NCBI GenBank assembly: GCA_040905425.1 | Contig: JBBDRO010000072.1 | Location: 1-25,989, forward strand | DNA from: Gemmatimonadota bacterium | Lineage (GTDB): Bacteria > Gemmatimonadota > Gemmatimonadetes > Longimicrobiales > RSA9 | Direction: 5' to 3' | DNA length: 25,989 nt | Notes under the pieces: model-generated | Database searches by the model: none | Seen by the model: only the letters and a program-made list of their open reading frames with translations | What the model was told of the DNA's origin: nothing | Translations under genes and position numbers: made by a program | In this document: piece by piece, positions 1-23,266 of the stretch | Position numbering within the stretch: position 1 is the first letter of the stretch | How the letters are laid out: every line of letters starts with the position of its first letter

Positions 1-187
1 CCCGGTGTCGGGGGGCTTCGCACGTCCGGCAACCACCAGAACGGTGGCCGCGCCCGCACCACCGGCTACCTCCGGCACGGCGACCCAGCCCGTCCGGCCG
101 CTGCCCGATGCACGGCCGCGCCCGCTTTTCCTTCCGGGTCGCGGTGCGTACATTGCCCTCCCCTGCCTCACAGCCACCCTGGATTCC

Positions 188-1621
188 ATGATCGAAGCTG
201 CCGCGGCGGACGGCCCCCTCCACGTCCTGGTGGTGGATGATGAAGAACTGCTGCTGCGCAGTGCCACCCGGATCCTGGAGGCCGAGGGGTACGTGGTCAC
301 GGCTGTGACCCGCGGGCAGGAAGCGCTGGATCGCCTCCAGCGCCGGCCGTTCGATCTGCTGCTCACCGATCTGGCGCTGCCCGACGTGGACGGCATGACG
401 CTCCTGCGTGAAACGCGCTCCCTGGATACGCCACCGCTGGTGGTCATCATCACCGCGTTCGCCAGCGTGGAATCCAGCCTGGAAGCCGTCCGGAGCGGCG
501 CCTACGATTACCTGCCGAAGCCCTTCACGGCCACGCAGCTACAGGTGGTGATGGGTCGCGCCGCGGCGCAGGTCCGGCTCGAGCGGGACGTGGCGCGCCT
601 GCGCCACCAATTGAGTTCCCGCGACGGTCTGATGGGCGTGGTGGGCACCAGTGAGCCGATGCGCGCCGTGGCGGACATCGTGAGCCGCGTGGCCCCGAGC
701 AGCGCCAGCGTGCTCATCACGGGAGAGAGCGGCACGGGCAAGGAACTGGTGGCCCGCGCGCTCCATCGGGAGAGCCGCCGCGCGCAACGGCGCTTCGTTG
801 CCATCAACTGTGCCGCATTGCCCGGGCATCTGCTCGAGTCCGAACTCTTCGGCCATGAGAAGGGGGCCTTCACGGGCGCCGACAACCAGCGCCAGGGCCT
901 CCTGGAGTATGCTTCGGGGGGTACCTTCTTCCTGGACGAGATCTGCGAGATGAGCCTGGATCTGCAGGCCAAGCTGCTGCGCGTGCTGCAGGAAGGGGAG
1001 GCGCGGCGCGTGGGCGGGGAGGAGGAGCGGGCGTTGGATGTGCGCTTCATTGCCGCCACCAACCTGGATCCACGGCGGGCGGTGACGGACGGTCGGCTCC
1101 GCCAGGACCTGTTCTTCCGGCTGAACGTCGTGCCTCTGGCGCTGCCCGCACTGCGGGAGCGCCGCGATGACATTCCTCTCCTCGTGGAGCATTTTCTGCG
1201 GCGCGCGGGCGAACGCTACGAGCGGCCGGGGATGCGCGTGCTACCGGCGGCCATGGATCGGCTGATGGCCTATGGCTGGCCCGGGAACGTGCGGGAATTG
1301 CAGAACGCCGTCGAACGGATGGTGCTCATGGCCAGCCAGGAGACGCTGGGCGTGGCGCTCCTGCCCGCGGAGATCCGCGGCGGGGATGCCGCCGACGCGG
1401 CCGGCACGTCCACGTTGCATGAGCAGCCCTACCACGAGGCCAGGGGCGCGGTGGTGGCCAGCTTCGAGCGCCGCTACCTGGCGGCCCTACTGGAGGAAAC
1501 GGAGGGCAACGTATCGGAGGCGGCGCGGCGGGCTGGGATCGATCGCAAGACCATCCACCGCATGCTGGATCGCCATGGCCTGACCCGCGCGCTGGAGCCG
1601 CGGGGAGATCCGTCCATGTGA
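188..1621 (+). CDS. Sigma-54-dependent response regulator (NtrC/AtoC family; REC-AAA+-Fis-type HTH)
   Basis: REC motifs VLVVDDE, LLTDLALP, YLPKPF. Walker A GESGTGKE, intact ESELFGHEKGAFTGA, Walker B LDEI, WPGNVREL. C-terminal HTH GNVSEAARRAGIDRKTIHR. ATG at 188 chosen over the ORF's GTG at 5 because the first 61 codons are low-complexity. Confidence 0.95.
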   Translation: MIEAAAADGPLHVLVVDDEELLLRSATRILEAEGYVVTAVTRGQEALDRLQRRPFDLLLTDLALPDVDGMTLLRETRSLDTPPLVVIITAFASVESSLEAVRSGAYDYLPKPFTATQLQVVMGRAAAQVRLERDVARLRHQLSSRDGLMGVVGTSEPMRAVADIVSRVAPSSASVLITGESGTGKELVARALHRESRRAQRRFVAINCAALPGHLLESELFGHEKGAFTGADNQRQGLLEYASGGTFFLDEICEMSLDLQAKLLRVLQEGEARRVGGEEERALDVRFIAATNLDPRRAVTDGRLRQDLFFRLNVVPLALPALRERRDDIPLLVEHFLRRAGERYERPGMRVLPAAMDRLMAYGWPGNVRELQNAVERMVLMASQETLGVALLPAEIRGGDAADAAGTSTLHEQPYHEARGAVVASFERRYLAALLEETEGNVSEAARRAGIDRKTIHRMLDRHGLTRALEPRGDPSM

Positions 1622-1622
1622 G

Positions 1623-1637
1623 GTGCCGCCGCGGCAC
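1623..1637. terminator. Possible short hairpin between convergent genes
   Basis: GTGCCG-ccg-CGGCAC (6-bp stem, 3-nt loop) in the 36-nt gap between convergent stops. Only a weak T tract (gggtttc) follows. Confidence 0.2.
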
Positions 1638-1657
1638 GGGTTTCAGGTTAGCCACGG

Positions 1658-4615
1658 TCAGCGCAGCCACGCCAGCTGGAGCGCGAACAGCTCCCCGCCC
1701 ACGTCGCCGGGCAGGCCCTCACCCCGGTCGAGCAGCGCCTCGCCGCGTAGTTCCAGCGCCTGCGCCAGGCGCATCCCACCGCCCACCTGGACCCGATACA
1801 CGTCGTAATCCCAGGCCGCCGTGGTACCGTCGGAGCGATGGACCGGCAGAAAGTGCATCCCGCCGATGCGGCTGGCTACCCACGCGCCCGGAGCCACCTT
1901 GGCCTTCACCTCGCCATACCATCCGATCTCGGTGGGGTCATCCACAACGTTGGGCACTTCCCAGCGATCCATCAGGGCCTCCGCACGCAGTTCGATCCAT
2001 CCCCGACTCCAGCGGGCCTGGAGCGCAACGATCTCCTGATCGTAATCCCCCGCGTCGAAGTAGGCGCCAGCGTAGCCCGCGGGGACGGCCGCCTGCGGAG
2101 CCATGTAGGGCCCCCGGTTCCACGACACACCGAAATTCCAGGCCGCCGCGGGCGCGAAGCCCACATGGGCAACCCAGGAGGGTCCGGGTGCGCCGCGGCG
2201 GCCGGGATTCCACTCGGGCGGTGCGCTCGAGGGGGCAGAGTTCACCACGGCCCCGTGCAACTCCCACCGCCCGAGCGCGCCCGTTGCCAGCGCGCCGGTG
2301 GGATAGGGGACCTGCCAGACGGCGGGAGCGCCGAAGGGCCGGAAGCGGGCGGGGTCGTTCTTCCACTCGATGAACGCATCATTGGCAGCCGGCGGGAGTG
2401 CGGCCGCCACCATGGTGCGGTGATCGTAAGCCAGAGGCGGACGCAGGAGCGGATCCCCCGGTCCCAGATGGCGTGCCGCGTAGCCGCCGAAAGGAGTGGC
2501 GAATTTGCCGATCTGCAGCGTCAACGGCACACCCCTGATCGGCGTCGCGCGGATGAAGGCCTGGTCGATGCGGAGTTCGAAGGGCCGCGCCCCCGGCGTT
2601 TCGCCCCGATCCAGCCGGGGCTCCACGAGGACATAGACCCGGTCGCCCGCGAACATGTCCACGAAAAGACGCACCCGCGGTGCCAGGAACGGATCCCGTT
2701 CGGCCAGCAGCCCGGCAGGTGCGGCGCGGGCCATGTAGGCCTGCACTTCCAGGGTACCCGAGACGGCCGCTTCGAACATGCCATCCGGAGACCGCACGCG
2801 GACCTCCGGCGGGGGCGGGAGCTGGGCGGTCGCGGGGACCGCGCCCAGCAGGGCGAGCACCAGCGTGGCCACAGCAATGCCCCTCACCCCGGCGGTCGTG
2901 CCGGCGCTGGCCTGCGTGCCGTCTACCGCGAATACGTGTACCACACGGGACAGGCCCTTGAGCGTGCGCTGCGGCATGGGGCGCGTGCGGATCCCGCTTA
3001 CGCGTTCGCAGGTGGCCGCGGAGGCCAGGATCTCGCCGGGCGCCGCCGCGGAGCAGAGGCGCGCGGCCACGTTGACCGCTTCGCCCAGAACGGTGTAGTT
3101 CAGCCTGCGCTCGGAGCCCATGTTGCCGGCCACCGCCACACCCGTGTTCACACCGATGCCCACGTCGATACCGGCCTCGCCTCGCGCCTCCCGGCGGCGT
3201 GAGATCTCGGCCACGGCCGCACGGATGCGCAGGGCGGCGCGGAGCGCGCGCGCGGGATCATCCGGGCGCGCGATGGGCGCGCCGAAGATGGCCATCACCT
3301 CGTCGCCTACGTACTTGTCCACCACGCCACCCTCTGCCTCCACGGCGGCGCTCGCGTGCTCCATGATCTCGTTCAGCATACCGATGACCGCCTGGGGCTC
3401 CATGCCCTCGGTGATGGTGCTGAAGCCGCGAATATCGGCGAAGACGGTGGTCACCTCCCGGTTCTCACCCCCCAGCACGATGTCTCCCTTCAGCATCTCC
3501 GCGGCCACGTCGGGAGAGACCACCTTGTCCAGCACACCCCGGTACTGCTCCTTGAGCATCAGGCCCTCGGCCATCTCGTTGAAGGAGGCGGCCAGGTCCC
3601 CGAGTTCGTCGCGGGAGCGGACGTTGACCCTGGCGGCATAATCCCCCGCTGCCACCCGGCCGGTGGCCGCCACGAGCGCCCGGACGGGCCGGGCCAGGCC
3701 GCGGGAGATGACCGTGGCGAAGAGCGCGGCAAAGAACAGCGCCGCCACGGCGGCCAGCCGGATGGCGCCGCGGATGCGCTCGAAGGGGGCCAGGATGGCA
3801 TCCAGCGGAATGGCCAGCACCCGCCAGGCGTCGCCCGCCGGCGGCAGGGAATCCGCCACCAGGGTCCACGCCGAGCCGTCCGGCCCCTCCACCTCGGAGC
3901 GCCCCCCGGTGCGGGACGCCGCCACCAGAGCGTCCGCCGTGATGGGATCCTCGGGGCCGAGCGTCCCGGCTACGCAGGCGCTCCCCGCCACGAAGCAGAC
4001 CTCGCCACCGAGCGCCTGTCCGAGCGAGGCCGCGGCCCGGTCGTCGATCGCGGTGCCGAGGGCCAGAAAGCCGATCGGCTCCTCCACCACGCGCATCAGC
4101 GTGGCGTGCACGCCGTAAACCCGGCCGTCCACCACGTGGAAGCCGAACCCCACCGTATCGCCGCGTGCCACCATCCCATCCAGGAGCGCCAGGGGCACCG
4201 CGGGGGCGGCGTCATCCATGGCGTGCAGCCCCTCCACCGCGGCCACGGGGGCGCCGTCCAGTCCGGCGAACGCCACCAGCGCGGAGTCCAGGTCGGCCAG
4301 CCCCAGCTCATAGGCCGTCTCGAGGCGGAAGAAAGCGGTGTCGGGATCCAGCAGCATGGCGCTGAGCAGGGCGGGGAAGCGGTTCGAGGAGGTGAAGCGG
4401 CGGCCCACCTGCTCGAGCTGTTCCCGGCGGATGCGCACCAGTTCGTCGAACGCGCTGCGCGTGCGTGCCACGGAAGCGTCCACGAAGAGGTCCACCTGGC
4501 GGTCGGTCTCCCGGCCCACCACGGCCAGCCCCACACCCACGAGGAGGGCCACCGAGCCCAGCAGGGCGGTCAGCAGCTTCAACCGGAAGGTGGTGCGGGG
4601 GAGGCGCATCAGCAC
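1658..4615 (-). CDS. Membrane-bound class III adenylate cyclase (TM-periplasmic domain-TM-HAMP-cyclase) fused in frame to a signal-peptide-like segment and a predicted outer-membrane beta-barrel
   Basis: TM1 about aa 14-33, TM2 about aa 287-303, HAMP (PVRAL...RDELGDLAASFNEM). Cyclase residues D394 (FADIRGFS), K434 and D438 (DKYVGDE), T508, N515 and R519 (YTVLGEAVNVAARL). aa 577-597 are hydrophobic and end A-T-A. aa 598-985 have alternating amphipathic strands, a LQIGKFATPFG motif and many aromatics. Start is GTG 4615 or ATG 4609. Confidence 0.85.
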   Translation of the reverse strand: MLMRLPRTTFRLKLLTALLGSVALLVGVGLAVVGRETDRQVDLFVDASVARTRSAFDELVRIRREQLEQVGRRFTSSNRFPALLSAMLLDPDTAFFRLETAYELGLADLDSALVAFAGLDGAPVAAVEGLHAMDDAAPAVPLALLDGMVARGDTVGFGFHVVDGRVYGVHATLMRVVEEPIGFLALGTAIDDRAAASLGQALGGEVCFVAGSACVAGTLGPEDPITADALVAASRTGGRSEVEGPDGSAWTLVADSLPPAGDAWRVLAIPLDAILAPFERIRGAIRLAAVAALFFAALFATVISRGLARPVRALVAATGRVAAGDYAARVNVRSRDELGDLAASFNEMAEGLMLKEQYRGVLDKVVSPDVAAEMLKGDIVLGGENREVTTVFADIRGFSTITEGMEPQAVIGMLNEIMEHASAAVEAEGGVVDKYVGDEVMAIFGAPIARPDDPARALRAALRIRAAVAEISRRREARGEAGIDVGIGVNTGVAVAGNMGSERRLNYTVLGEAVNVAARLCSAAAPGEILASAATCERVSGIRTRPMPQRTLKGLSRVVHVFAVDGTQASAGTTAGVRGIAVATLVLALLGAVPATAQLPPPPEVRVRSPDGMFEAAVSGTLEVQAYMARAAPAGLLAERDPFLAPRVRLFVDMFAGDRVYVLVEPRLDRGETPGARPFELRIDQAFIRATPIRGVPLTLQIGKFATPFGGYAARHLGPGDPLLRPPLAYDHRTMVAAALPPAANDAFIEWKNDPARFRPFGAPAVWQVPYPTGALATGALGRWELHGAVVNSAPSSAPPEWNPGRRGAPGPSWVAHVGFAPAAAWNFGVSWNRGPYMAPQAAVPAGYAGAYFDAGDYDQEIVALQARWSRGWIELRAEALMDRWEVPNVVDDPTEIGWYGEVKAKVAPGAWVASRIGGMHFLPVHRSDGTTAAWDYDVYRVQVGGGMRLAQALELRGEALLDRGEGLPGDVGGELFALQLAWLR

Positions 4616-4621
4616 CGCGCG

Positions 4622-5281
4622 TCAGAGCTCGATGTCCACGCGCACGCTACCCTGGGCCGGTACCGTCACCCGCACCTCACGCGGCTCGGTGTCCACGTTC
4701 CACGCCACCAGCGTGTAGCTCCCGGCCGGCACGTCCGGGAGGGTGAACGTGCCGTCTTCACCGGGCACCACCCAGAAGAGATTTTCCACCACCAGAATGA
4801 CGCCGCGCATGGACTTGTGGACCTCGCAGAAGACGTGCACCACACCGGGGGCATCGAACACCATGGCCTTCGACTCGGGGTTCGGGTACCGACCGAGGTC
4901 GAAGCGCTTGGGCCTGGAATAGGAGAACACGTTGTGGTAGAAGGAGTCCTCATTGGGGAAGGTCACCTCCCCACCGATCGGCACCACGAGGAGCGGGGGC
5001 ACGAAGGCCGTGTCCCGCTGGGCCATCACTTGCGAGGCCCCCCGGGCGGGCGTCGCGCCGGGTACCACACCTTCGAGATACACCACCGTGGGGATGGCCA
5101 CCATGGTCCGCGCCGGGGCCCCGCCGTAGCGCGCCGCCACGCGGGGCGGCGGCTCGGGCGTGTAGCGCACGGTGCCGGTGATCGAGCCGCGCGGCGGGAG
5201 CTCGCGCACCGCCATCGGCCCCGCGCCGCCGAGCGTCAGGAGGGCAAGGCCGAAGATATTGAGGGACCGGGTCGTGGACAT
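4622..5281 (-). CDS. Secreted cupredoxin (type-1 copper) domain protein within a carboxypeptidase-regulatory-like beta-sandwich
   Basis: N-terminal signal-like segment. Cupredoxin pattern AFVP...GGEVTFPNED..H116NVFS...FC152EVH155KSM158. Flanking GSITGTV and DGTFTLPDVPAGSYTLVAW. GAAGGAG RBS upstream of the ATG. Confidence 0.85.
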   Translation of the reverse strand: MSTTRSLNIFGLALLTLGGAGPMAVRELPPRGSITGTVRYTPEPPPRVAARYGGAPARTMVAIPTVVYLEGVVPGATPARGASQVMAQRDTAFVPPLLVVPIGGEVTFPNEDSFYHNVFSYSRPKRFDLGRYPNPESKAMVFDAPGVVHVFCEVHKSMRGVILVVENLFWVVPGEDGTFTLPDVPAGSYTLVAWNVDTEPREVRVTVPAQGSVRVDIEL

Positions 5282-5320
5282 GCCAGACGCTCCTTCGCGC
5301 CGGGGTTCGTGGTGCCGATG

Positions 5321-5956
5321 TCAGCGTAGCCGGGGCCGATCCGGAAATGGAGCCAGGAGTGCGCGCACCGCGGCCGCCGGATCGGCAGCCGCCATGACGG
5401 CGCCCACCACGGCGGCACCGGCCGCGGCCGTGGCGGCCACCTGCGCCACGTTGGCGGGCGTGATCCCGCCGATGCCCACCACCGGAACATCGACTGCGCG
5501 GGCCACGCTGTCCAGCCGCTCGGTCCCGATACCCTCCTGGCCGGCTTCGGCTTTGGTGGTGGTGCCGAACACCGCGCCGCAGCCGATGTAGGCGGCACCG
5601 TCGGCCACGGCGCGGCGCGCCGTCTCCGGATCGTCGGTGGAATAGCCGATGAGGAACCCGGCGGGTGCCGCACGGCGCGCGGCTGCCACGGGCAGGTCAT
5701 CCGGGCCGAGGTGGGCGCCGTCGGCGCCGGCGGCGAGCGCCGCGTCCAGGCGGTCATTCACGAACAGGAGCGCGCCGTACTCCCGGATGCGCGGCAGGAG
5801 AGCCGTGGCCTGCTCGAAAAGCTCGCGCGCGGTGGCCGTCTTGTCCCGCAACTGCACGGCCGGCGCTCCCGCCGCCAGCGCCGCCTCCACGATCTCGCGC
5901 ACCTTTCGCGGTGCCGCCAGCCCTCGGTCGGTCACTACGATGAGCCGCAGGTCCAT
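5321..5956 (-). CDS. thiE: Thiamine-phosphate synthase
   Basis: QLRDK, VNDRLDAA, GAHLGPDD, YIGCGAVFGTTTK and VGIGGITP motifs; 211 aa. Confidence 0.92.
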   Translation of the reverse strand: MDLRLIVVTDRGLAAPRKVREIVEAALAAGAPAVQLRDKTATARELFEQATALLPRIREYGALLFVNDRLDAALAAGADGAHLGPDDLPVAAARRAAPAGFLIGYSTDDPETARRAVADGAAYIGCGAVFGTTTKAEAGQEGIGTERLDSVARAVDVPVVGIGGITPANVAQVAATAAAGAAVVGAVMAAADPAAAVRALLAPFPDRPRLR

Positions 5957-7971: not shown

Positions 7972-11035
<3,064 letters not shown>

Positions 11036-17982: not shown

Positions 17983-18077
17983 GGGCGCAGCGGATCCGCG
18001 GCGGTGCGCCGCGCGCCGGCGGCAGACAACTTGCTCCGGGAGCGCGGCGTGGCGCACCCCCCGTGCAAGGAGATACC

Positions 18078-18983
18078 ATGGAGCCCATGGCCGATGTGCG
18101 ATTTTCCGGATCCGGCGTGGCCCTGGTCACGCCCTTCGACGAACGGGGCGTCAACCAGGAGGCGCTGCGCGCCCTGGTCCGCTTCCACCACGCCGAGGGC
18201 ACCGATGCCCTGATCGTCTGTGGCTCCACCGGCGAGGCCGCCGCCATGAGCGCGGCTGAGCAGCGCACGGCCGTGGAGACCGTGGTGGACGAGAACGCCG
18301 GCCGCCTGCCGGTGATCGTGGGCTGCGGCGGCAGCGGCACGCGGGAGGTGGCCGCGCTGGCGGAAGCGGCCGCCCGTGCCGGCGCCGACGCCGTCCTGGC
18401 CAGCGCGCCGCCGTACAACAAGCCGCCGCAGGCGGGCCTCACGGTGCACTTCCGGGCGCTCATGGAGGCCTCCGACCTGCCGCTCATCGTCTACAACGTG
18501 CCGGGCCGGAGCGCCGTGAACATCCTGCCCGCCACCATCGCCGACCTGGCCGCCGCCGACGAACGCGTGGTGGGGGTGAAGGAGGCCAGCGGGGACATCT
18601 CCCAGGTGGCGGAGCTGGCGCGGCTGACGGCGGGGCGGCTGGCGCTGTGGAGCGGCAACGATGACCAGGTGATTCCCCTCATGGCGCTGGGCGGGCAGGG
18701 CGTCATCAGTGTGCTGGGCAATGTGGTTCCGCGGGAGACGCACAACATGGCCACGGCGTTCCTCGAAGGCGACGTCGCTGCTGCCCGTAACCTGCAACTC
18801 CGCTTCCTGCCGGCCATCGCCGCGCTCTTCGCCGAGTCCAATCCCATTCCCGTGAAGACCGCGGTGGGCTGGCTGGGCTTCGACGTGGGGGAGCTGCGCG
18901 CCCCGCTCGTGCCGCTTTCCTCCGGCGGCGCGGAGCGCCTGCGGACGGCGCTCACGGAACTGGGTGTGGAGCTGACGTCGTGA
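18078..18983 (+). CDS. dapA: 4-hydroxy-tetrahydrodipicolinate synthase
   Basis: ALVTPF, GSTGE, PPYNKP, YNVPGRS (Tyr and Arg retained), GVKEASG (Schiff-base Lys), SGND, ESNPIPVK. AAGGAG RBS before ATG 18078; followed by dapB. Confidence 0.95.
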   Translation: MEPMADVRFSGSGVALVTPFDERGVNQEALRALVRFHHAEGTDALIVCGSTGEAAAMSAAEQRTAVETVVDENAGRLPVIVGCGGSGTREVAALAEAAARAGADAVLASAPPYNKPPQAGLTVHFRALMEASDLPLIVYNVPGRSAVNILPATIADLAAADERVVGVKEASGDISQVAELARLTAGRLALWSGNDDQVIPLMALGGQGVISVLGNVVPRETHNMATAFLEGDVAAARNLQLRFLPAIAALFAESNPIPVKTAVGWLGFDVGELRAPLVPLSSGGAERLRTALTELGVELTS

Positions 18984-22360: not shown

Positions 22361-23266
22361 GTGACCGATACGCTCGCTACCCGCATGGGCGGCGTGCTGG
22401 TGCCCGCCACAACCCCCTTTGATCCCGTCACCGGCGAGGTGGCGCCGGTGAGCATGCGGGAGAACCTGCGCCGCTGGCTGGCGGATGGCGCGGACGGCAT
22501 CGTTCTCTTCGGCTCCACCGGAGAGGGCGTGCTCCTGGACGACGACGAGAAGCGCCGCCTCACCGCCCTGGCGCGCGAGGTGGTGCCGGCGGGCGTGCCG
22601 CTGCTGGGCGGCGCCGGCGCGGACTCCCTGCGCGCCACGCTGCGCCAGTGTCACATCCTGGCGGAGAGCGGGGTGGACGCGGTGCTCATCCACCCGCCGC
22701 CGTACTTCGGGCCGTATCTCAGCGCGGAGGCCATGCGCGTCTACTTCGAGGCGGTGGCGGACGGGTCCCCCGTGCCGGTGGTGCTCTACCACATGCCCAA
22801 GTTCACCCATGTGACGCTGGAGCCGGCGCTGGTGGCCGAGCTCGTGCGCCATCCCAACGTGGTGGGGCTCAAGGATTCCTCCGGTGACCTGAAGCGCCTG
22901 GCCGAGTACAGCGACGCGTGCGGCGAGCGCTGCCGCCTGCTGGTGGGCAACGGCACGCTCATGTACACCGCCCTGGAACTGGGCTGCGCCGGTGGCATCC
23001 TGGCCGTGGCCCTGCTGGCCATGAAGGACTGCGCCGAGATCGTGCGTCACCACCGGGCCGGGGAGAGTCAAGCCGCGGGCAAGGTGCAGGAGCGCATTGC
23101 CCCCGTGCATCGTGAGGTGGTGGCCACCTGGGGCGCCGTGGGCGTGAAGGCCGGGCTGGACCTCCTGGGGCTGGCGGGCGGCCCCCCGCGGCCGCCGCTC
23201 CGCCCCCTCGGCGCCCGCGAGCAGAAGCAGGTGGCCCGGGTGATGCAGGGGGCCCACCTCCTGTAG
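22361..23266 (+). CDS. DHDPS/NAL-family class I aldolase (non-DapA paralog)
   Basis: TTPFD, GSTGE, PPPYF, LYHMPKFT, GLKDSSGD; lacks the DapA Arg after YxxP and the NPIPVK motif. Confidence 0.88.
   Translation: MTDTLATRMGGVLVPATTPFDPVTGEVAPVSMRENLRRWLADGADGIVLFGSTGEGVLLDDDEKRRLTALAREVVPAGVPLLGGAGADSLRATLRQCHILAESGVDAVLIHPPPYFGPYLSAEAMRVYFEAVADGSPVPVVLYHMPKFTHVTLEPALVAELVRHPNVVGLKDSSGDLKRLAEYSDACGERCRLLVGNGTLMYTALELGCAGGILAVALLAMKDCAEIVRHHRAGESQAAGKVQERIAPVHREVVATWGAVGVKAGLDLLGLAGGPPRPPLRPLGAREQKQVARVMQGAHLL

Follow-up and report, generated by a model that had tools for sequence, protein, structure and literature searches.

A putative HAMP-linked adenylate cyclase continuous with a predicted porin-type barrel through an internal signal-peptide-like segment in Gemmatimonadota

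The window analysed here, a 25,989-nucleotide (nt) stretch of contig JBBDRO010000072.1 from a Gemmatimonadota bacterium (assembly GCA_040905425.1), carries at 1658..4615 on the minus strand a single uninterrupted, GTG-initiated frame of 985 codons plus stop, in which a predicted membrane-bound class III nucleotidyl cyclase runs directly into a predicted porin-type beta-barrel. We consider it probable that this gene is a maintained fusion of two neighbouring genes of an envelope module, and that its precursor is processed into an inner-membrane cyclase and an outer-membrane porin. A first-pass annotation of the DNA had proposed such a processed trans-envelope polyprotein on one unbroken 985-codon frame; reading of the open reading frames (ORFs) bore out the frame, and the fold of the barrel, the conservation of the fusion, the signal-peptide features of the junction and the alignment of the leaders all speak for the interpretation. 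The comparative sequence evidence on which the case rests is strong. A public protein of 983 amino acids (aa; P0002), which is 99% identical and begins at the ATG two codons inside the GTG of the window, is recorded as 'adenylate/guanylate cyclase domain-containing protein [Gemmatimonadota bacterium]', and the fused proteins are publicly annotated as cyclases or kinases only.

The C-terminal domain (aa 598-985, 1661..2824; all coordinates within the gene are on the minus strand) is predicted to form a porin-type barrel of 16 strands with an OprP/OprO-like fold. The AlphaFold2 (AF2) model of this 388-aa domain, computed from an input alignment of 82 short stand-alone family members, reached a predicted local distance difference test score (pLDDT) of 94.5 and a predicted TM-score (pTM) of 0.92, and shows a closed barrel of 16 long strands, in which domain residues 131-164 form a helical insert. 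The top Foldseek match in the PDB was OprP (2o4v; E 3.6e-15, TM-score 0.66), followed by OprO (4rjx) and then by general porins of 16 strands; the OprP/OprO structures (2o4v, 4rjx and 4rjw) matched at E 3.6e-15 to 7.7e-14 and TM-scores of 0.62-0.66, with 13-14% identity. This outcome agrees with the barrel that had been proposed earlier for aa 598-985. A phmmer search with aa 577-985 against 1.84 billion representatives (cut-off E 0.001) recovered 563 representatives at E <=0.001, with 96 at E <=1e-30, and the best 150 of the 563 included 26 proteins of 939-1032 aa matched at their C-terminal end and many proteins of about 370-460 aa matched over their whole length. By sequence, the barrel family appears to have no Pfam home. 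Among the NCBIfam models only LbtU_sider_porin responded to the barrel (E 0.019, far under its cutoff), six of 83 family members reach Porin_O_P (PF07396) at E <=0.01, and one relative, P0028, scores 23.6 bits with that model. Many conserved Arg residues are seen in the alignment of the fused homologues. Outer-membrane barrels usually end in an aromatic residue, mostly Phe, as part of the C-terminal beta-signal for the beta-barrel assembly machinery (BAM), and the final residue is F in 35 of 44 fused and 55 of 82 stand-alone family members. A Cyc2-like cytochrome-porin was also considered for this domain and rejected: no Cys was seen by eye in aa 598-985, so a CxxCH haem motif is impossible.

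The distribution of the fusion was surveyed with a locus scan over one genome per species (GTDB set), using the motif G[KRL]F[AV][ST]PFGxY, which returned 52 loci; tblastn found a barrel homologue in 51 of them, and L052 gave no match. Cyclase and barrel are continuous in one frame in 17 of the 51 loci, all from different metagenome-assembled genomes (MAGs), as one ORF in 16 and with an extra in-frame stop in L009. In nine further loci they are abutting, co-directional but separate genes, where the cyclase ends about 6-30 residues beyond the conserved KGF/KGL motif and the barrel gene, with its own Met and leader, starts a few to about 100 nt after the cyclase gene (a gap of 4 nt in L014, as derived from the frames). 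Three of these abutting pairs come from Gemmatimonadota- or Acidobacteriota-labelled MAGs and six from distant ones (Calditrichota, Balneola, Chlorobi-like, unclassified). The barrel gene lies on the opposite strand and faces the end of a cupredoxin-cyclase operon in six loci, and it is divergent from that operon in one; L049 has a weaker cyclase-like match farther upstream, and no cyclase was found within the 7-kb flanks of the other 17 loci. At the protein level, a cyclase domain is present in all 22 barrel matches that are 541-1724 aa long, and all 17 matches in the search of 'longer' proteins carry HAMP plus cyclase. The fusion is found in more than 40 protein clusters at 35-47% identity, and 44 fused proteins could be aligned at 38-48% identity.

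A metagenome-type contig invites the suspicion of an assembly or sequencing artefact, of a very recent loss of a stop codon or of a functionless pseudogene, and the in-frame stop in the sensor domain of L009 illustrates that damaged copies exist. As a general explanation this is already refuted, and we give it next to no credence. The same fusion is present in P0002 (99% identical), in 17 loci of different MAGs and in 44 aligned proteins, and its occurrence in so many independent loci and clusters means that it is neither an assembly artefact nor the product of a recently lost stop codon. Functional residues are invariant in both halves, fused forms occupy deep branches of the barrel tree, and over aa 481-720, a span that includes the cyclase/barrel junction, the G+C content of third codon positions (GC3) of this one frame never leaves the range 0.77-0.93, so that there is no sign of two stitched frames. 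The comparison of fused with split homologues that the first-pass annotation had suggested therefore places the fusion in 17 of 51 loci and dozens of clusters rather than in this assembly alone, and the recent stop-codon loss that it had offered as an alternative falls away on the same counts. In L009 (L009:726-3722) the stop lies inside the periplasmic sensor, with a stop-to-stop ORF from 1452 in the same frame as the cyclase match from 726; the copy may be a pseudogene, or the stop may stem from a sequencing error or be a recoded codon.

In a quick maximum-likelihood tree of 49 barrels (midpoint root, with support from the Shimodaira-Hasegawa-like approximate likelihood ratio test, SH-aLRT, only), from which the truncated L020, L031 and L051 and the unmatched L052 were left out, the distant split forms make up one clade of seven, the fused forms occupy basal grades of a Gemmatimonadota clade of 42, and none of the 19 members of a nested clade (SH-aLRT 100) is fused. 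Mapping the fused label onto this tree needs five changes, at least three of which are forced by well-supported branches. The pattern suggests that the genes were first adjacent and fused early, and that fissions and relocations came later, with the direction of change remaining conditional because the root was placed at the midpoint. On these comparisons the fusion appears to be genuine, evolutionarily maintained and old, and not obligatory. Fused or abutting copies with labels from other phyla, namely L008 and L019 (Acidobacteriota-labelled), L029 (Planctomycetota-labelled) and L005 (Terriglobia-labelled), nest among Gemmatimonadota on the tree; the labels could be due to mis-binning or lateral transfer. 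In four of the 17 loci with no cyclase (L013, L017, L022 and L023) a polyphosphate kinase gene precedes the barrel directly or at a short distance. These PPK1-linked, unfused paralogues (L013:155-3310, L017:3386-6541, L022:902-5690 and L023:162-3323, all on the plus strand) form one well-supported clade, with a MshEN/DUF4388 protein between PPK1 and barrel in L013 and L023. Together with the OprP/OprO-like fold, this neighbourhood hints that the role of the paralogue branch may have to do with phosphate or polyphosphate.

The two halves of the window protein are joined by a predicted cytoplasmic linker of low model confidence (aa 554-576, 2888..2956; pLDDT <50 at aa 570-581), delimited by the junction comparison and ranging from about 8 to more than 90 aa among fused relatives, and by a signal-peptide-like segment at aa 577-597 (2825..2887). 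The segment reads VRGIAVATLVLALLGAVPATA and is followed by QLPPPP; V577 is encoded by nt 2885-2887 and Q598 by nt 2822-2824, so that the coordinates (V577 from nt 2887, Q598 from nt 2824) and junction sequence quoted in the first-pass annotation were all correct. It offers R578 in an n-region, a 15-residue hydrophobic core and the terminal P-A-T-A597, with A595 at -3 and A597 at -1, and the predicted cut falls before Q598. In the full-length AF2 model (pLDDT 85.9) residues 577-591 are helical, and pLDDT drops below 50 at 570-581 and 592-599, the sole low-confidence stretches there.

These features were compared across 18 fused junctions taken from DNA (the window and 17 loci) and across the 44 fused proteins. 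In the protein set, Ala stands at -1 in 41 and Gln at +1 in 40, the -3 residue is Ala in 23, Leu in 11 and Val in four (38 of 44 together), the median length of the hydrophobic run, which is usually followed by Pro, is 15 residues, and a net positive charge is found within the eight residues before the run in 36. A597 and Q598, each conserved in at least 90% of the 44, are among the few near-invariant columns outside the catalytic and structural domains, and the signal-peptide features are retained though the junction sequence itself is not conserved. The basic residue, hydrophobic core, Pro and A-x-A box that had been described for the window are thus kept throughout the fused set. Moreover, the start of the mature window domain aligns just past the N-terminal leaders of stand-alone family members, 74 of 82 of which have a hydrophobic leader, with [AGS]-Q shortly after the hydrophobic core in 32 of those 74. 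The segment begins at residue 577, behind a folded cytoplasmic domain, and not at the N-terminus of the precursor. By its sequence, the junction behaves as a Sec signal peptide with a predicted signal peptidase I site after A597. An Ala followed by Gln is very frequent at predicted signal-peptidase sites of these Gemmatimonadota barrel and cupredoxin-like proteins, a 'Q-rule'-like pattern. A preference for Gln after signal peptidase I sites, with cyclisation to pyroglutamate, has been described for Bacteroidetes, and the accessible part of that report makes no mention of Gemmatimonadetes (PMC5837995).

The same segment might instead be an uncleaved third transmembrane anchor, with the barrel staying tied to the cyclase and either spanning both membranes or remaining periplasmic and close to the inner membrane. 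The helix at 577-591 in the full-length model and the hydrophobic runs of up to 23-32 residues in some relatives would suit such an anchor. We nevertheless regard it as improbable: the spacer between hydrophobic core and first strand counts only about 7-20 residues, which would be far too few to cross the periplasm; the median run of 15 residues is shorter than the first and second transmembrane helices (about 21), and P-x-x-A-x-A followed by Q comes next in nearly all copies; the -1 Ala (41/44) and +1 Gln (40/44) are conserved while the rest of the segment is not; and orthologues use separate genes, even on opposite strands. With so short a spacer, cleavage would be almost a topological requirement for a barrel destined for the outer membrane.

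The barrel could also be made mainly from an internal start ahead of the signal segment, as a nested gene, the read-through fusion being minor or discarded. The scan for start codons took in as many as 25 codons ahead of the hydrophobic core (fewer in L004, L015, L019 and L007, where cyclase homology ends nearer) and the first three codons of the core. In the window, in-frame GTGs occur at codons 577 and 582, the second of which, five codons past the first, has GGTGA 11 nt upstream; L018, the only junction to combine ATG with GGAGG, has the latter 9 nt upstream; and some start-like codon is present in 13 of the 18 junctions. On the other side, no in-frame ATG, GTG or TTG exists in the scanned stretch of five of the 18 (L001, L003, L004, L009 and L015), so internal initiation cannot be the general route, and no start codon position is conserved among the 18. 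Upstream of the GTG at 2887 no Shine-Dalgarno (SD)-like string of at least 4 nt lies within 4-18 nt, as had been noted before, and SD-like strings at the junctions are within background: within the cyclase part, 195 of 674 start-like codons follow an SD-like 4-mer. With no stop codon between the halves, every ribosome that translates the cyclase continues through the barrel, and the fusion protein would be made regardless. Main synthesis from a nested start, which the first-pass annotation had also considered, is not supported as a conserved feature and seems to us unlikely, while additional internal initiation may occur at the 13 junctions with start-like codons.

The N-terminal half has the layout of a membrane-bound sensor enzyme. 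A first transmembrane helix (TM1, about aa 14-34, 4514..4576; N-in), read from the sequence and lying inside the AF2 helix 10-76, is followed by a periplasmic sensor (aa 35-283, 3767..4513), in which AF2 secondary structure shows a long helix and two alpha/beta modules, and by TM2 (about aa 284-304, 3704..3766; out-to-in), which falls in the continuous AF2 helix 272-322; the topology is predicted. The sensor had no Pfam or NCBIfam match, and a PDB sequence search gave one chance match (E 2.5). Its look-alikes by language model are dCache_1, dCache_3, sCache and CHASE4 clusters, which together with the AF2 secondary structure offer a lead towards a dCache-like domain. HAMP (aa 303-352, 3560..3709) matched PF00672 at E 1.5e-15 (57.6 bits against a cutoff of 25), and the class III nucleotidyl cyclase catalytic domain (aa 386-553, 2957..3460) matched PF00211 at E 1.2e-21 (77.6 bits against 21.9). 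The order of transmembrane helix, periplasmic domain, transmembrane helix, HAMP and cyclase given earlier is thus recovered by Pfam for the last two parts and by AF2 for the helices and the sensor. The catalytic set that had been listed is likewise complete: D394, K434, D438, T508, N515 and R519 are all present and are invariant across the 44 aligned fused homologues. We take D394 and D438 to bind metal, K434 and T508 to specify the substrate (IIIb) and N515 and R519 to act on the transition state. The best solved structure for the cyclase in Foldseek was CyaC of S. platensis (1wc1; 32% identity, TM-score by target 0.88), presumably a IIIb enzyme, and Cya2 and CyaB matched as well. By the Lys/Thr pair the enzyme is predicted to be a class III, IIIb-type cyclase that forms cyclic AMP (cAMP).

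Under the favoured reading of a processed precursor, the porin would have kept its own N-terminal signal peptide, now inside the polypeptide. TM1 and TM2 would insert via Sec/YidC, with HAMP and cyclase folding in the cytoplasm; aa 577-597 would then enter SecYEG in an N-in/C-out orientation, and the 388-aa barrel polypeptide would be translocated. Signal peptidase I would cleave after A597 and expose Q598, and BAM would receive the freed barrel and insert it into the outer membrane. What remains in the inner membrane would be the cyclase (aa 1-597), now ending in a third transmembrane helix formed by the used signal peptide. On this scheme the fusion would couple synthesis only, from the same message, through the same translocon and at 1:1. 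Function does not depend on the fusion, since the two proteins have genes of their own in close relatives, and its benefit is likely to be coupled, equimolar and co-localised synthesis, an optimisation and not a requirement. As a module, the porin might admit or present a signal, the cupredoxin-like protein encoded next to the gene and the dCache-like domain might sense it in the periplasm, and the cyclase might convert it to cAMP.

Several points weigh against this reading. Cleavage, pyroglutamate formation, the outer-membrane location and cAMP synthesis are steps that we infer, and the role of the module, that is, the signal sensed and the contacts between the partners, is a proposal and the weakest step. 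The signal-peptide call comes from our own feature counts at the junctions, and, as given above, 13 of the 18 junctions hold some in-frame GTG, ATG or TTG. Porin_O_P scores the window barrel below threshold (E 0.18, 11.5 bits against 20.9), and any single porin model is matched by at most seven of 83 family members. The window copy itself is atypical in that its C-terminus (...LQLAWLR) ends in R instead of the usual aromatic residue, the LPTLxxLG motif found just past the cut site in most relatives is absent, and its terminal branch in the barrel tree (0.98) is the longest in its clade. It is the most divergent barrel of that clade, yet it models with high confidence.

The stop codon of a second gene, at 4622..5281 on the minus strand, lies 6 nt before the GTG of the cyclase, and its product is a predicted secreted, cupredoxin-like protein of 219 aa with weak Pfam matches and a conserved ligand pattern. 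Copper-bind scored 18.1 bits against a cutoff of 21.2 and Cupredoxin_1 16.7 against 27, CarboxypepD_reg responded weakly too, and the amicyanin profile gave 15.7 against a cutoff of 110. The protein has an N-terminal leader and a CarboxypepD_reg-like sandwich apparently interrupted by the cupredoxin domain. H116, C152, H155 and M158 (H...C-x2-H-x2-M) are invariant in 31 homologues, and we take this His...Cys-x2-His-x2-Met arrangement to be a type-1 copper ligand pattern with amicyanin-like spacing. Look-alike clusters are unnamed or called 'putative plastocyanin', and the leaders of the cupredoxin-like proteins mostly end in A-Q. A homologue is present in 35 of the 52 loci and stands directly upstream of the sensor gene wherever the locus extends that far: in 16 of 17 fused loci (L019 being cut at its 5' end), in nine of nine abutting and five of six convergent ones (L026 being cut off), in the divergent locus and in L049; L052 also has one. 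In L027 (6022-8044) and L028 (6240-8248) the cupredoxin-like gene abuts the barrel with no cyclase between, and integrase/transposase (rve) genes are found 0.3-1.3 kb upstream; loss or relocation of the sensor gene may account for this arrangement.

The cytoplasmic output also varies. In P0088 (939 aa, from an Opitutaceae MAG) and in clusters P0184-P0186, HisKA plus HATPase_c replace HAMP plus cyclase, and the kinase is followed by an internal A-x-A leader and then by the same barrel family. When P0088 is aligned with the cyclase-barrel protein P0188, the N-terminal sensor regions and the barrels align and the output domains do not, which makes the periplasmic sensor and the barrel the constant pair and the cytoplasmic output exchangeable. 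That the same barrel is fused to histidine kinases as well indicates that 1:1 covalent synthesis is not obligatory for function. These kinase fusions, the upstream cupredoxin-like gene and the several arrangements of the gene set are additions to what the first-pass annotation had described.

A further, tentative proposal, which we hold to be well short of probable, is that the OprP-like barrel, the dCache-like sensor and the cupredoxin-like protein come together physically in one trans-envelope complex for sensing, of a type so far undescribed. The porin would serve as antenna and the blue-copper protein as periplasmic co-receptor for redox state, copper or an anion, with an interchangeable cytoplasmic output, either cAMP synthesis or signalling by a histidine kinase; in many Gemmatimonadota and some Opitutaceae-type lineages the sensor and the barrel would be encoded as one polyprotein, so that the barrel is launched from the translocon of the sensor and stoichiometry and place of assembly are fixed. 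As to the signal, the OprP/OprO likeness and the polyphosphate-kinase neighbours of the paralogues hint at a phosphate-type anion, and the copper site hints at redox or copper.

The surroundings of the fused gene are otherwise ordinary. G+C content of the window is about 70%, and its other genes are of common chromosomal kinds (thiE, mltG/YceG, ruvX, ligA, PBP1, dapA/dapB and purA). The scan of 1400-5600 found no promoter-like site; it found three weak terminator-like hairpins against 1.2 expected, none at the junction, and these are probably due to chance. One of the hairpins, at 2671-2683 on the minus strand, has a 5-bp stem and a T-rich tail and lies within the barrel coding region, about 140 nt past the signal segment. 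Convergent with the fused gene at 5..1621 on the plus strand is a sigma-54-dependent response regulator (REC, AAA+ and Fis-type helix-turn-helix); this sigma-54 activator was rejected as a part of the module, weak matches being found in six loci at varying distance, and so were thiE and mltG, which lie upstream in L002, L015 and L033 only. A response regulator with a GGDEF domain is encoded at 10046-11035 on the minus strand, and its adjacency to the module is not conserved in related loci. The window also holds two DHDPS-family (DapA-like) paralogues within 4.5 kb, both on the plus strand, one at 18063-18980 in a dapA-dapB-dapD/H-like run and the other at 22361-23263 after a T2SSE-type ATPase gene.

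Taken singly, the cyclase (a HAMP-linked enzyme of class IIIb type), the porin and the Sec signal peptide of the fused protein are all of known kinds. The closest parallel to the assembly as a whole is FbcH, the cytochrome b/c1 precursor of Bradyrhizobium japonicum, reportedly described by Thony-Meyer and co-workers in about 1989-1991, in which one ORF is said to encode a membrane protein, an internal signal peptide and an exported second protein, with a leader peptidase cut giving 1:1 products. Both FbcH products, however, stay at the inner membrane in one complex, whereas the second product here is a predicted outer-membrane barrel that would have to depart from the inner membrane and would need BAM, and the first is a signalling enzyme with a large cytoplasmic domain before the internal signal. 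OprP and OprO, the phosphate- and diphosphate-selective porins of P. aeruginosa, share with the window barrel the 16 strands, a similar size and a weak Porin_O_P similarity, and some unfused paralogues of the window barrel are encoded beside polyphosphate kinase, but identity is 13-14% and the window barrel stays below the Pfam cutoff; no fusion of OprP or OprO with a protein of the inner membrane is known to us. HAMP-linked class III (IIIb) cyclases such as CyaC, and the mycobacterial HAMP cyclases as further HAMP-linked class III members, have the HAMP plus catalytic domain, in the IIIb case with the full residue set; known members, like the split relatives here, end shortly after the catalytic domain, whereas the window protein continues into signal peptide and porin. 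Systems such as FecA-FecR-FecI and LuxP-LuxQ presumably resemble the module in that an outer-membrane barrel and/or a periplasmic binding protein is encoded with an inner-membrane sensor, three layers of the envelope being linked in a conserved way, but the module of the window has no TonB box, plug or anti-sigma factor and combines a porin-like barrel with a cupredoxin-like partner and a predicted cAMP or histidine-kinase output. The Cyc2 cytochrome-porin of iron oxidisers, as far as the accessible parts of the reports describe it, is likewise a porin barrel fused to a functional partner domain, but both of its parts lie in the outer membrane behind one N-terminal signal peptide, while the partner here is an inner-membrane protein and the signal is internal (PMC10654088, PMC12016527). 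A literature search covering few subscription journals returned no cyclase-porin or sensor-porin fusion, no internal signal peptide before a barrel, no inner-membrane protein and outer-membrane barrel in one precursor, and no three-gene module of cupredoxin, sensor and porin.

The comparison points to a widespread, uncharacterised three-part module, in which a dCache-like sensor with either a cyclase or a kinase as its output is accompanied by a cupredoxin-like protein and an OprP-like porin, and which ranges over Gemmatimonadota, over MAGs with Calditrichota, Balneola and Chlorobi-like labels and over Opitutaceae-type proteins. In it the fused genes may act as a 'Rosetta stone', assigning a partner and a likely signalling role to a porin family with no Pfam home. 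Should the proposed cut take place, a signal peptide preceded by about 570 residues, a folded cytoplasmic enzyme among them, would be within the capacity of Sec and signal peptidase I; a polytopic inner-membrane protein could serve as the launching point of an outer-membrane barrel; and polyprotein logic in bacteria would couple proteins of two different membranes. If the trans-envelope complex holds true, this would be the first natural case in which an inner-membrane protein and an outer-membrane barrel are freed from one precursor by signal peptidase.

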